A stretch of 64,000 nt of DNA from Desulfurococcales archaeon (GCA_023255955.1 JAGDWD010000008.1:64845-128844), one strand, 5' to 3'. Positions 26,549-32,116 are shown, counted from the first letter of the stretch. A program made the numbers and translations. Notes: a model not told the origin generated them from the sequence alone.

Positions 26549-26720
26549 CTACTGGAGGTTAATGGTGAGATCGACCTCTCTCCGCACTAAAACGTTTTTC
26601 GGATGTAAGGATATCGATGTAGTATGTAGTAACTGACGAGAGTACTTATTAGGTTGTTTAACGCTTTATGTTGGGGTCTATACGAAGAGAGCTCAGAGCA
26701 CGATCCTGACGGAGGTACTC

Positions 26721-27317
26721 ATGGCTAGCGCTGCCCTCATAGTAGGGCTCTCGATACTAGCTTACTTCATGAGTTTCTCATCGAGTTACTCACAGCAGGT
26801 GGAACTATACAACTTAATCAACTATGAGGCAGTTAATCAGGTAGTTAGGCTCGTAGCCTACGATGATGTTAGTAATGTTGTGTGGCTCCTACTTCGGAGG
26901 CTAGACTCAACACCTCGGAATTTCTTCATACTTATTAGAGCTGGCGATGTCTTCCTGGACTGTGGGAAGGTCTACGTCTACAACGAGACTAGGGACAGTA
27001 ATGGAATCCTCTGCGATGAGTCTGGAGATTGTTCGATTTCCTGTGTTTATGGACCGAGGAGTGTGCGGGCTGGTGACGTGATAGTTTCGACTAAGGACGG
27101 CTTCATACCCTTACCAGACTACCTAAGGACTACAATTTCTGGGTCCATCAGCTTGATTAGGATTCCGTACTCGGTGAGTGGTCGGAGTCAGAACATCATC
27201 CTGAAGGTTGACTTGGGATCGGAGAGTGAGGAACTTGAGAGCCTGGAGGTATTCCTCTGTCTAGACTATGGTGGGAGGTTCTACGTGGTTAGGATATATG
27301 AGGTAGGTCTTAGATGA
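26721..27317 (+). CDS. small type IV pilin-like protein (P1); the true 5' end is probably upstream of the first ATG
   Basis: Hydrophobic N-terminus ASAALIVGLSILAYF. The same frame upstream encodes KRAQSTILTEVL, giving a class III signal-peptide-like KRA/QS junction. 4-nt ATGA overlap with the next gene. Confidence 0.5.
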   Translation: MASAALIVGLSILAYFMSFSSSYSQQVELYNLINYEAVNQVVRLVAYDDVSNVVWLLLRRLDSTPRNFFILIRAGDVFLDCGKVYVYNETRDSNGILCDESGDCSISCVYGPRSVRAGDVIVSTKDGFIPLPDYLRTTISGSISLIRIPYSVSGRSQNIILKVDLGSESEELESLEVFLCLDYGGRFYVVRIYEVGLR

Positions 27318-29036: not shown

Positions 29037-30473
29037 ATGATCGCGGTAGCTTCGTACATCTATGTGAACATATCTAGACCCACCACCGCTCCGCTGGACC
29101 CCCTCCTTAGTAAGCTAGATAGCTACCTAAACGAGAAGCTAGTTATGGGTCCGACACTCAGCGGGTTCTACGTGGCGAATAACGGTAACTCGCCTCTATC
29201 TATAGATTATATAGTCCTGCAGAACACTACCAGCGGGTCAGTTACCGTAGTCAGAGCTAGCCGCAACCAGCTGTGTTCCGCAAGTACGGTGGAGCTCCAA
29301 CCGGGAGGCACGTCGATAGTTACCTGCAGTAGTAACGATCTTGAATCGATAGCTGTAGTTACATCTAATGGCAAGGTATTCACCCGAGACCCGAAACTGA
29401 CCGCTCCATACCTAATCCCAAGAACCATAACTCAGAGAGTCCTACTCAGCCCAGAGGTAGTAACTGAGATAGGTCAGTATCTGCGGGTCGTCGGCAACAT
29501 AGTGAACACCTCGATCGATATTACAAAGTATATTGATAGTAGTAACACTAACTTAGTTCTCAATGCTAACGTGTCCTTATTGATAGCTACGAAGACCCCT
29601 GGAAATCCCGATGCTTGGAACATCCTCGTCGTAGGTTACGGAGGTTACGGACCCCGACCCAAGAGTAGCCTAAACATTGGGGGTCAGACAATAAACCTAT
29701 CTAAGGTAGGTTACTACAGATTCCGAATTAAGTTAGAGAACTTCACGGGGCAGATAAGGGTGACAGAGACGGCAGGTGAGAGGAGTCTTACTAAGCCTGA
29801 GATAGTCCCGAACGTAGTTAATCAGGGAAAGCAGTACTTCATCTACCTCAGTGGTTCAGTGAGGAGGGTTTCTGTCTACACGAATACCTCGAAGTTGGAG
29901 CCGGGATTCGTAGATTTAGATCCGTACTACGTATTTGGGGATCTAGATGGTAATGGCTACCCAGAGCTGATCTTCGTGACTCAGGATCACGGTACGGGGA
30001 ATAAAGATAGTGTGAACGATAGGCTCCCGGTTAACATTAACGTAGTCGACTCATTCCTGAATCCTGTTAGGATAGTCTTCACAGCTGAACCGATCGATAA
30101 CTCTAGGTACGCTACAGTGGTAGTGAGCGTGAGGTTGTTCTTCTGGGATAGCTCAGAGGACGATATATCTGATAACGATAACAGGGTGATACTGAGGGTA
30201 GGCATCTACGATAACCAGGAAAATAAGTTCGTCTACTCTGTGAGTATGTCATACTATGAGCTCTGCAGGTACAGGACTGTGAAACCTTTTACTGTATCCT
30301 ACATAGTTAAGGACTTCCTACTCTACGTGCCTTCACCTGAGGAGATAGAGTCAAGGGATCTCTACATAGTTCTAGAGGTTACCGATCCCTACAATCTCCA
30401 GGGGAGTAGAAATGATGCTGAGATAATAGTGGGTATAGAGTATGTAGGTCTGGTACTCGGGGTGAGACCTTGA
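29037..30473 (+). CDS. large type IV pilin-like surface protein, paralogue P3; the N-terminal signal is encoded upstream of the listed ATG
   Basis: The frame upstream of ATG 29037 reads SSRRGVGTITAAALTLAL(M)IAVASYIYV, which is the class III signal seen in P2/P4. Contains GDLDGNGYPE and C-terminal DPYNLQGSRNDAEIIVGIE blocks shared with P4. Confidence 0.6.
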   Translation: MIAVASYIYVNISRPTTAPLDPLLSKLDSYLNEKLVMGPTLSGFYVANNGNSPLSIDYIVLQNTTSGSVTVVRASRNQLCSASTVELQPGGTSIVTCSSNDLESIAVVTSNGKVFTRDPKLTAPYLIPRTITQRVLLSPEVVTEIGQYLRVVGNIVNTSIDITKYIDSSNTNLVLNANVSLLIATKTPGNPDAWNILVVGYGGYGPRPKSSLNIGGQTINLSKVGYYRFRIKLENFTGQIRVTETAGERSLTKPEIVPNVVNQGKQYFIYLSGSVRRVSVYTNTSKLEPGFVDLDPYYVFGDLDGNGYPELIFVTQDHGTGNKDSVNDRLPVNINVVDSFLNPVRIVFTAEPIDNSRYATVVVSVRLFFWDSSEDDISDNDNRVILRVGIYDNQENKFVYSVSMSYYELCRYRTVKPFTVSYIVKDFLLYVPSPEEIESRDLYIVLEVTDPYNLQGSRNDAEIIVGIEYVGLVLGVRP

Positions 30474-32116
30474 GGAGGGGTATCTCAACACTGTTAACAG
30501 CTACTATAGTAGCTGCGGTGGCTCTCTCAGTATTTACGACTTTATTCACCATATCGTATAGGAGAACCTCTACTTCCGTGTCCAGTCTCTGGGGCCTTAT
30601 CGATTATACAGACCTCCATGAAGCCACGAAGCTAGCTGTAATCGTTAGGGGTGATATGGCTACTCTAAAGAACATCGGGAGAAGTCCCGTCGAACTTGAG
30701 TACATAGTATTCAATACATCTAATGGAGTGGAGATATTGAGGTTGGATCTCAACGATAGATGCAGAATCCTAAAGATTAATGAAGCCTGTGAAGTCAGCT
30801 TAGGTAGGGGTACGTTAATCGCAGCTATAACTAAGTCGGGTGTGATAGTGTTCCCCGAGAGAATAGGTATTGAGGTAGAAACATCTGAAGCGGCCCTCAT
30901 AATACCTATAACCTTCTCATTCAGAAACCTGGGAGACATAGCCAAGGAGTTTGAGATAGATCCAGAGCTCATAGCTAAGCCCTATCCTAACCAAAGAGAT
31001 AAAAGAGGTGTTAATGGAAGCGTTAGCCTAATACTCCCAGAGGGGAGAGAGGAGGGAGAGTACTACGACAAGGAGGTAAGTACAATAAGTACGAAATGCC
31101 AAGGTGGTGGAAAAGATGATAAAATACCCTTCGGGGTTCTCATAGTCGGCTACGACCCGAGCTGGGTAATGGAGTCCAGGGGGGTGAACCCGGGAGCTCC
31201 ACCCAGATACACTATACTCATAGCTGGACCTAAGTCTAAAGGGCAGGAAAAGCTTTGCATCGGCAAGAGTGACGTACCTCTGACGCAACGGGGGTTCAGA
31301 GTGAAGATCGCGAACTTCACTGGTACTATCAAGATATATGACTCCGAAGGTAGAGTAGTAGCCTGCTCCTCCTCAAATCCATCCGAGTGTGTAGGATATA
31401 GAAGTGCTATTGGTACATGGTACTACGAGAATTCCGGTTGGAAGCTTTTCATGGACGGTGTAGCTAGCTATATAGCATACTACCAGAGAGCTCCTTCTGG
31501 TCAGGGCCAGGAAATGAGCTACGAGCCATTCCTATTTCTAGGGGACTTAGATGGTAATGGATTAGTGGACATACTCCTAGTTACGGAGGACGCGTACTAC
31601 GGTGATAGCAGTAAGTACAATGACAGTGATGATAAGGGTATCAACTTCCTACTTGATTACTCTACGGAGCCTCTGAAGCTGAAATTACTGCGAGTCGGCT
31701 ACGTGCTCGGCTCATCAGACGGCTCCATAGATGGGGGTAGGTACTCAGCAGTAATACTCTACCTTAACCTACTGTTCCACGATAACTCATACCCGGACGA
31801 GCAACAGCTGGAGGACATAGATAGGACGGACTGGGTACTGAGGATACTTCTCGTAGACGAGGAGGGTAACGAGTATATAATTAGGGAGTATAGGTATCAG
31901 GAAATATGTAACTACCACAAGACCGTGGTAACTGATGTAGGTAGGGACAACTACTTCACTAAACTATCTCAGTCTATATACATACCCATACCAGCATCAG
32001 GTAAGTACTGGGTGGTGATAGCTCTTCAAGACCCGTACTACTACCAGGGAACTAAAAACGATGCTGACATAACTATCGGTATAGAGATAATCGGTGCCCT
32101 CCCACTGTTAAGGTAG
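30470..32116 (+). CDS. large type IV pilin-like surface protein, paralogue P4 (548 aa)
   Basis: TTG start overlapping the P3 TGA. N-terminus MRRGISTLLTATIVAAVALSVF. GDLDGNGLVD loop. C-terminal QDPYYYQGTKNDADITIGIE block. Confidence 0.6.
   Translation: MRRGISTLLTATIVAAVALSVFTTLFTISYRRTSTSVSSLWGLIDYTDLHEATKLAVIVRGDMATLKNIGRSPVELEYIVFNTSNGVEILRLDLNDRCRILKINEACEVSLGRGTLIAAITKSGVIVFPERIGIEVETSEAALIIPITFSFRNLGDIAKEFEIDPELIAKPYPNQRDKRGVNGSVSLILPEGREEGEYYDKEVSTISTKCQGGGKDDKIPFGVLIVGYDPSWVMESRGVNPGAPPRYTILIAGPKSKGQEKLCIGKSDVPLTQRGFRVKIANFTGTIKIYDSEGRVVACSSSNPSECVGYRSAIGTWYYENSGWKLFMDGVASYIAYYQRAPSGQGQEMSYEPFLFLGDLDGNGLVDILLVTEDAYYGDSSKYNDSDDKGINFLLDYSTEPLKLKLLRVGYVLGSSDGSIDGGRYSAVILYLNLLFHDNSYPDEQQLEDIDRTDWVLRILLVDEEGNEYIIREYRYQEICNYHKTVVTDVGRDNYFTKLSQSIYIPIPASGKYWVVIALQDPYYYQGTKNDADITIGIEIIGALPLLR

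Follow-up and report, generated by a model that had tools for sequence, protein, structure and literature searches.

A four-gene cluster of modular pilin-like proteins in a Desulfurococcales archaeon: candidate accessory subunits of an Ups/Bas-like type IV pilus

A cluster of four adjacent genes, here called P1 to P4, lies on a stretch of 64,000 nt from a Desulfurococcales archaeon (GCA_023255955.1, JAGDWD010000008.1). The whole stretch is referred to below as the window. All four genes are on the + strand and encode pilin-like proteins, which are considered here as candidate accessory subunits of a type IV pilus. P1 (26682..27317) is a small pilin-like protein of 211 aa if counted from an ACG at 26682, or 198 aa from the ATG at 26721. 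P2 (27314..28966) is a modular pilin-like protein of 550 aa. P3 (28977..30473), likewise modular, has 498 aa from an ACG at 28977 or 478 aa from the ATG at 29037, and P4 (30470..32116), the third modular protein, has 548 aa and starts with TTG. With canonical starts, the open reading frames (ORFs) are 26721-27317, 27314-28966, 29037-30473 and 30470-32116. The genes are spaced by 4-nt overlaps or a 10-nt gap, and the overlaps ATGA at 27314 and TTGA at 30470, mentioned in a preliminary description of the locus, are both present. That description proposed a four-gene unit of pilin-like proteins with three large paralogues, and the unit proved real when ORFs, N-terminal segments and paralogy were verified. 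The position 26634, given there as the beginning of the cluster, is an upstream stop codon and not a start. A TATA-box-like element may be present 5' of P1 (TTATTA, 26646..26651, + strand); the corresponding position reads TTTATAAAAG in the related loci L008 and L011 and TATATAAG in L010. The remainder of the window holds housekeeping, purine-biosynthesis and transporter genes and a defence-like cluster.

Each of the four proteins has one strongly hydrophobic segment, located at the extreme N-terminus. The order of a short charged region, [K/R][G/A] and a hydrophobic stretch of about 20 residues is found in P1-P4 and in their orthologues, and the basic residues, Gly/Ala and hydrophobic helix described earlier were thus seen in all four proteins. 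The N-termini read KRA/QSTILTEVLMASAALIVGLSILAYF in P1, MRSRRG/ISNMMVATLVFTALALTL in P2, (T)ASSRRG/VGTITAAALTLALMIAVA in P3 and (M)RRG/ISTLLTATIVAAVALSVF in P4, with putative processing motifs KRA/QSTILTEV, RRG/ISNMMVA, RRG/VGTITAA and RRG/ISTLLTA, respectively. The N-termini quoted before for P1 and P3 are upheld by those of the orthologues, although in both genes this class III-type signal region lies 5' of the first in-frame ATG, GTG or TTG. Characterised archaeal processing sites include KG/IS in UpsB, KA/IS in UpsA, RA/QI in EpdA and also RA/LS (PMC4371748), and the sites RG/IS, RG/VG and RA/QS of P1-P4 resemble these experimentally characterised ones. A tolerance of PibD at positions +1 and +3 has also been reported (PMC4371748). 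N-glycosylation sequons occur in P1-P4 at 0.5-1.4 per 100 aa, 2-5 times as densely as in the other ORFs of the window (median 0.28), which is weakly consistent with an extracellular location.

P2, P3 and P4 are paralogues. BLASTP aligns P2 with P4 (2e-17) and P3 with P4 (5e-34) end to end, as had been claimed for all three proteins, but the match between P2 and P3 (8e-15) is shorter than full length. The shared blocks listed before (GYDP/GYGG, YEP/LDP, F.D.S, DPY and others) were all found in their places. Invariant residues in an alignment of 34 homologues are N68, T121, G227-Y228-x-P230, P353, D374, D396, D438, E478, Y482, D521 and Y523. Neighbour joining of 48 proteins, drawn from 16 loci, groups them by their position in the cluster, with bootstrap values of 75, 78 and 86 of 100 for the P2, P3 and P4 groups. 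Identity is 38-45% within these groups and 21-23% between them. The positional groups indicate that the triplication is older than the divergence of these lineages, one copy of each gene having been retained since.

Searches returned 56 homologues of P4, 34 of P2 and 5 of P1, all unnamed or annotated as 'hypothetical'. Those with a named source all come from metagenome-assembled genomes (MAGs) of Zestosphaera, Ignisphaera, Thermosphaera, Desulfurococcaceae and a 'Sulfolobales archaeon'. When one genome per species was scanned, 19 loci were obtained, all in uncultured Thermoprotei. A profile search of 1.84 billion representatives gave 200 proteins at E<1e-3, 97 of them at E<1e-30; the few named members are from MAGs of Acidilobaceae and Desulfurococcales, and no cultured organism was found among the cluster members looked up. 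In every related locus that is long enough, the order P1-P2-P3-P4 on one strand is kept, while the flanking genes vary between clades. Immediately 5' of P2, an orthologue of P1 (~216 aa) occurs in all loci in which that stretch is intact. In the clade of the window (nine loci, the window and L004-L011), the cluster stands alone between a PCC-domain gene and purine genes.

Some variation around the four genes was also observed. A fifth pilin-like gene, P0 (~400 or ~210 aa), precedes P1 in many loci of Ignisphaera and Desulfurococcaceae (L001 167-1294; L013 5788-6990; L016 5020-6201; L002 5577-6215), its N-termini including RRG/LSDTVALAILLG; the window clade lacks this gene. Two P2 orthologues have unusual ORF calls compared with the usual ~540 aa, one shortened (L008 7243-8463, 406 aa) and one lengthened (L009 6594-8474, 626 aa), which may reflect frameshifts or assembly errors. 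In L031 (Acidilobaceae), a superfamily member of 551 aa occurs alone.

The N-terminal part of P2-P4 appears to be a pilin module. In P4 it covers residues ~1-145 (30470..30904, + strand) and comprises the signal, the alpha-1 helix and an Ig-like sandwich, in which the N-x-G...strand motif is NIGR at 30671-30682. When the P2-P4 profile (A2) was compared with all sequences in the PDB, three chains were matched, at profile positions 6-145. The best match was the type IV pilin 8FK7 of Pyrobaculum calidifontis (E 4.4e-4), followed by the soluble domain of FlaG from S. acidocaldarius (6PBK/5TUG, E 3-6e-3). The alignment with 8FK7 takes in the sandwich, including the N-x-G...strand motif, as well as the hydrophobic helix, whereas the FlaG entries, being soluble domains, align over the sandwich only. 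In the search of 1.84 billion representatives, positions 6-145 also matched small proteins at E ~1e-5. These are UpsA/UpsB/BasA/BasB-like according to NCBIfam, and arch_flag_Nterm, the archaellin/pilin N-terminal domain, is above cut-off in them. The sequence signal is modest but indicates homology of the P2-P4 N-terminal module to established pilins.

Structure predictions agree with a pilin-like N-terminus. In the AlphaFold2 model of P4 (alignment of 46 sequences; pLDDT 82, pTM 0.70), residues 2-52 are helical and residues 55-121 form a sandwich, beyond which lies a large beta-rich region. The model of P1 (pLDDT 77) has a helix at residues 4-51 and two Ig-like sandwiches; its alignment is thin because the homologue search gave 5 sequences only. 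A Foldseek search with the P1 model returned MSCRAMM-type Ig folds, as known from adhesins. A long N-terminal helix followed by an Ig-like beta-sandwich is therefore predicted in both models. Together with the profile matches to 8FK7, FlaG and the small Ups/Bas-like pilins, this predicted helix-sandwich fold bears out the type IV pilin-like N-terminus proposed earlier.

The remainder of P2-P4 is more difficult to classify. The C-terminal conserved module of P4 (residues ~335-548; 31472..32113, + strand) is common to P2, P3 and distant relatives of 750-850 aa. These distant relatives match only the last ~200 residues (profile positions ~335-540), and their N-termini are also class III-like, e.g., RG/LSNTLAGLIILSF. 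Because they share only that region and a class III-like N-terminus, the last ~200 residues appear to behave as a separate module that is always borne on a pilin-type N-terminus. Distant superfamily members include the proteins P0159, P0166, P0171 and P0173 and the region 10001-12400 of L030, where two unannotated neighbours of 785 aa and 753 aa lie on the opposite strand. Foldseek comparison of the P4 model with PDB and BFVD gave weak generic matches (TM <=0.2 normalised to query) to modules of the jelly-roll or receptor-binding kind, among them Cry toxin domains, an Eph ligand-binding domain, the furin P domain, phage tail/fibre proteins and C1q/TNF-like and lectin-like folds. Since these matches are only generic and of low TM, no fold family is assigned, and the predicted structure is best described as a large beta module without a close solved relative. 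The structural checks suggested in the preliminary description thus yielded a predicted beta-rich fold but no named family, and Pfam, NCBIfam and Foldseek agree with its view that the C-terminal module belongs to no named family.

The C-terminal module is rich in invariant acidic residues. A GDLDGNG loop, which is a calcium-site-like DxDGNG motif, is present in P4 (31541..31561, + strand) and, aligned with it, in P3 (29937..29957, + strand). Residues G358, D359, D361 and N363 of this loop are invariant in 46 P4 homologues, and the motif is lost in the P2 of the window. These sequence features suggest calcium sites in the C-terminal module, and the loop recalls the calcium site of PilY1. Pfam detected no FG-GAP/VCBS repeats, the loop being single in P3 and in P4.

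A link to pilus machinery was found in related genomes. Genes for a T2SSE ATPase, a T2SSF platform protein and UpsA-like pilins directly adjoin the cluster in relatives of the Ignisphaera, Thermosphaera and Desulfurococcaceae type. The loci with both T2SSE and T2SSF next to it are L013, L016, L017, L027/L028, L029 and L032. In the Ignisphaera locus L013, one strand encodes T2SSE, T2SSF, two small pilin-like proteins, a polytopic membrane protein, a 346-aa protein and P0-P1-P2-P3-P4. A convergent arrangement, in which P1-P4 face a block encoding small pilin(s), T2SSF and T2SSE, is found in L027/L028, in L029 and in L032, which is more distant. The block is followed by a secreted protein of 751-1051 aa and a coiled-coil protein of ~139 aa; in L027/L028 it additionally has a 409-aa membrane protein. 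Parts of the machinery also abut the cluster in L012, L016, L017, L019-L021 and L025, where contigs end. The linkage recurs in lineages in which P4 identity is only ~25-45%. The fixed gene order in related loci supports the four genes as a conserved unit, for which the preliminary description had proposed a phyletic profile. The reverse test, which used an alignment of the platform protein, retrieved 63 metagenome loci. The P2-P3-P4 triple lay within 10 kb in 9 of the 21 loci with at least 7 kb downstream.

The conserved pilus-machinery locus of uncultured Thermoprotei (L027 11687-21079; L029 11746-18537; L032 12189-19833; L033-L095) encodes the ~139-aa coiled-coil protein, the 751-1051-aa secreted protein, T2SSE, T2SSF, one or two UpsA-like pilins, a ~409-aa GT-C/PMT-like membrane protein and often the 346-aa protein. 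In NCBIfam, the linked ATPase is nearest to FlaI and BasE and the platform to UpsF and BasF. Two linked small proteins, of 137 aa and 148 aa, are nearest to UpsA, and in the longer one the pilin N-terminal domain exceeds its cut-off; the linked GT-C-like membrane protein weakly matches protein O-mannosyltransferase. Every equivalog cut-off was missed by the linked machinery; the system therefore seems related to, yet distinct from, the curated ones. Because the clusters of the relatives adjoin T2SSE, T2SSF and UpsA-like pilins, the appendage appears to be an Ups/Bas-like type IV pilus. Compared with the undescribed crenarchaeal appendage suggested before, it is thus not wholly undefined.

Several features are shared with the Ups system of the Sulfolobales (UpsE ATPase, UpsF platform, UpsA/UpsB pilins and UpsX). 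The platform of the relatives scores best against UpsF, two small pilins score against UpsA, and P2 matches UpsB weakly. A large unexplained accessory protein or proteins at the locus, as UpsX, and the cleavage motif (KG/IS in UpsB, RG/IS in P2 and P4) are further similarities. Nevertheless, the scores are far below the equivalog cut-offs, the Ups system lacks three paralogous pilin-fused proteins of ~550 aa, and UpsX is not reported as a pilin. The gene content also differs by the GT-C-like membrane protein, the ~1040-aa secreted protein and the 139-aa coiled-coil protein.

The same machinery genes bear on a second possibility, in which P1-P4 would form a bindosome-like pseudopilus, a short structure at or under the S-layer whose heads capture or process substrate. 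In the Sulfolobus bindosome (BasABC, BasEF and class III sugar-binding proteins), large proteins with class III signals likewise depend on a type IV ATPase and platform; archaeal class III signals do serve substrate-binding proteins assembled by BasEF, and besides FlaI and UpsF, the BasE and BasF models also give scores for the ATPase and platform of the relatives. The C-terminal module also resembles carbohydrate/ligand-binding jelly rolls, though generically only. However, Pfam and NCBIfam scans of P1-P4 found neither an enzyme family nor a substrate-binding-protein family or fold, including periplasmic substrate-binding-protein domains. Nor does an ABC transporter consistently accompany the cluster, and the small pilins beside the motor are UpsA-like, which are typical filament formers. 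A bindosome-like structure is therefore considered unlikely.

The proposed role of P1-P4 is that of accessory (minor) subunits of an Ups/Bas-like archaeal type IV pilus, in which they likely form a hetero-oligomeric tip cap; a probability of roughly 0.58 is given to this reading. A distal cap is proposed because P2-P4 are bulky, occur in one copy each and keep a fixed order. Each of them is about four times the size of the UpsA-like pilins of 137-148 aa encoded beside the motor in related genomes. From what is understood of type IV filament biology, P1-P4 would be made with a class III-type signal, inserted by Sec and held in the membrane via the N-terminal helix. A prepilin peptidase would probably trim them after K/R-G/A, and the mature proteins would join the filament through their N-terminal helices. 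P2-P4 each have a pilin module of ~130-145 aa, a beta-rich middle part and a jelly-roll-like C-terminal module of ~200 aa. In the distal cap, P2-P3-P4 would be the head, with P1, and P0 where present, serving as the adaptor that joins it to the major pilin. Through its displayed C-terminal modules, the cap would attach to surfaces, glycans or other cells. Type IV filaments grow from tip to base, and for this reason the cap might also start filament assembly. Overall, P1-P4 are probably a tip or priming complex.

Bacterial systems provide precedents for such a role. A survey in bacteria concluded that bulky modular pilins fit only at the filament tip, and the GspI-J-K heterotrimer is a further precedent (PMC8179133). 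The set FimU-PilVWX or GspH-I-J-K with PilY1 is similar in that four pilin-like proteins are co-transcribed and the bulky members are proposed to cap or prime the filament (PMC8179133), but in the archaeal cluster the large modules are fused to pilins instead of being part of a separate non-pilin protein. Pfam and NCBIfam scans revealed no homology of P1-P4 to bacterial minor pilins or PilY1. Nor did Pfam match a C-terminal beta-propeller of the PilY1 type, the predicted P4 model being beta-sandwich/jelly-roll-like. The comparison with PilY1 and bacterial minor pilins made in the preliminary description hence stands as an analogy. Modular pilins such as PilB and PilC of S. sanguinis and others also carry a functional module grafted on a pilin module, an architecture compatible only with the tip (PMC8179133). 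Yet that survey covers bacteria and known domain families (vWA, lectins), whereas here three paralogues of no known family occur together. In bacterial type IVb pili, the CofB trimer is a tip-located initiator of assembly (PMC6048534). CofB/TcpB proteins, whose tip trimer also mediates attachment, have a pilin module and beta-rich C-terminal domains in ~500 aa, and by analogy P2-P4 could form an equivalent heterotrimer. CofB and TcpB differ in being homotrimers of one gene, as opposed to three diverged genes and P1. The resemblance is architectural only, with no CofB/TcpB chain among the Foldseek PDB or profile matches.

For archaea, Makarova et al. 2016 found 3-4 untraceable accessory components in pilus loci of Desulfurococcales subclade 4A and proposed them as a minor-pilin set. 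The P1-P4 cluster is similar in its number of extra components and in the role proposed for them. It was not equated with the subclade 4A set (arCOG08836, 03511, 08837, 10426, 10615) because the published gene sizes differ, the D. fermentans products having ~254, 254, 870, 367, 129, 140 and 272 aa compared with 216/530/490/550 aa here. A 2026 survey of archaeal type IV filament systems reports adhesin-like and Ig-rich accessory proteins as well as class III-signal binding proteins; the four-gene unit is not described in it. Minor and modular pilins as such are known. The superfamily, its fixed organisation with three paralogues and the unclassified C-terminal module are new.

Several observations weigh against a tip complex of pilin-like subunits. 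Bulk alone is no proof of a tip position because filaments can carry large outer domains, and in helical filaments such domains can indeed be large. P2-P4, with P1, might instead polymerise as repeating units into a thick heteropolymeric filament, which their large domains would sheathe on the outside. All of them have complete pilin modules, and the strict set of one copy each recalls the alternating paralogous subunits of a two-component archaellum (PMC8821640). This arrangement is nonetheless quite unlikely. Small UpsA-like pilins are encoded beside the ATPase and platform in the linked loci, known archaeal type IV pili consist of subunits of ~130-150 aa (PMC4371748), and the weak non-canonical starts of two of the four window genes suit low-abundance proteins.

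Other points concern the pilin assignment itself. No Pfam or NCBIfam family was found at cut-off in a scan of all four proteins, and the curated pilin models (TIGR02537, UpsA/UpsB, Pfam) were likewise not reached by P1-P4; the sole NCBIfam match, between UpsB and residues 7-91 of P2, had an E of 0.005 and 16.9 bits, where 70 would be required. A strict pattern of the FlaFind type, [KRDE][GA][ALIFQMVED][ILMVTAS]x3, matches P1 (RAQSTI) and P4 (RGISTL) but not P2 and P3. In agreement with the earlier reading of the window, neither its scanned ORFs nor the purine block as annotated in the identical L007 contained a T2SSE ATPase, T2SSF platform or A24 peptidase. Furthermore, where the flank of a machinery locus is long enough, the cluster is missing from the vicinity in roughly half of the cases. 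The failure of P2 and P3 in the strict pattern and the isolation of the window cluster among purine and housekeeping genes would suit surface proteins held by an uncleaved signal anchor, with the N-terminus inside and the bulk outside, which act independently of a pilus and adjoin pilus genes incidentally or for regulatory reasons. Such proteins would not be expected to show N-terminal homology to solved pilins that extends past the helix into the sandwich, nor adjacency to the machinery that recurs at P4 identities of ~25-45%, and K/R-G/A precedes the N-terminal helix in nearly all orthologues. This makes signal-anchored proteins a very unlikely explanation.

A further difficulty is that P1 and P3 have no canonical start codon upstream of the signal in the window lineage. 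In the window, L004 and L010, no canonical in-frame start exists 5' of the P1 signal peptide. The ACG at 26682 occupies the codon position where L009 has GTG, and P1 of L004, L005 and L010 likewise has ACG. For P3, the ACG at 28977 is in the codon position where L004 has ATG and L005 has GTG, and it lies 7 nt 3' of AGGTG. Orthologues of P1 start with M-(x)n-[KR][KR][GA]-Q-S-(E/T)-L..., e.g., MVRRG/QSELV, MKKA/QSELL and MGRA/QSTVV, and those of P3 with M...RRG/VGxxxAA. These findings could be taken as signs of a decaying remnant, in which the start codons of P1 and P3 were lost and the cluster was set apart from its machinery. ACG does replace ATG/GTG at two orthologous starts, and no machinery is present in the window. 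Against decay, four intact ORFs are kept, the stand-alone arrangement is common to the nine loci of the clade, and the signal-region codons are conserved with synonymous changes between lineages, including those that are also without a canonical start. The ratio dN/dS is 0.14-0.21 for P1, 0.14-0.30 for P2 and 0.17-0.29 for P3; over all four genes it is 0.13-0.30, and P1 and P3 (0.14-0.29) are no higher than P2 and P4 (0.13-0.30). All four genes are under purifying selection. Because the signal codons vary synonymously and dN/dS equals that of P2 and P4, P1 and P3 are not regarded as decaying, and a remnant is highly improbable.

Translation of P1 and P3 may instead be initiated at the near-cognate ACG; alternatively, internal ATG starts could be used, giving proteins without the charged leader. 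A frameshift origin of the two starts (out-of-frame ATG at 26668 and GTG at 28967) was considered and dropped in favour of near-cognate initiation because ACG aligns exactly with the orthologous start codons.

Elsewhere in the window, a defence-island-like cluster (5738-15710, +) encodes a DUF1156 methyltransferase-like protein (1030 aa), a DUF499 protein and an SNF2-type helicase with a NOV_C domain (1032 aa). DUF499 is split, with profile positions 2-346 (of 1024) encoded at 8830-10239 and positions 358-977 at 10185-12251; the two ORFs overlap, and the split looks like a frameshift. The region 47576-53427 (+) encodes a protein of 1543 aa, whose domains are NPCBM_assoc and CARDB-like, and directly after it a MacB/FtsX-type permease; the pair, which has no relation to P1-P4, seems to combine a large surface protein with an ABC-type system. 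Short ORFs at 18288-18734 and 19015-19470 (+) match parts of the ABC_tran and rubrerythrin profiles and are probably gene fragments.

Bacterial systems use dedicated minor-pilin complexes. To our knowledge, the start of assembly and the tip cargo of archaeal type IV pili are essentially unknown, and no minor-pilin complex has been defined in archaea. The P1-P4 cluster is a concrete, conserved candidate for an archaeal pilus tip or priming set, with three paralogues that carry an unclassified module of ~400 aa. It also defines a new superfamily of ~200 cluster representatives, with class III-type N-termini in all those examined. In P1 and P3, the ACG found in place of the orthologous start codon may represent natural near-cognate initiation in a crenarchaeon. 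More tentatively, and with the odds somewhat against it, a pseudo-threefold P2-P3-P4 heterotrimeric cap, which P1 connects to the shaft, might nucleate a crenarchaeal pilus and mediate calcium-dependent attachment via a previously unknown C-terminal fold. If true, a tip complex would for the first time be defined for an archaeal type IV filament, with an origin independent of GspHIJK/PilVWX and CofB/TcpB.

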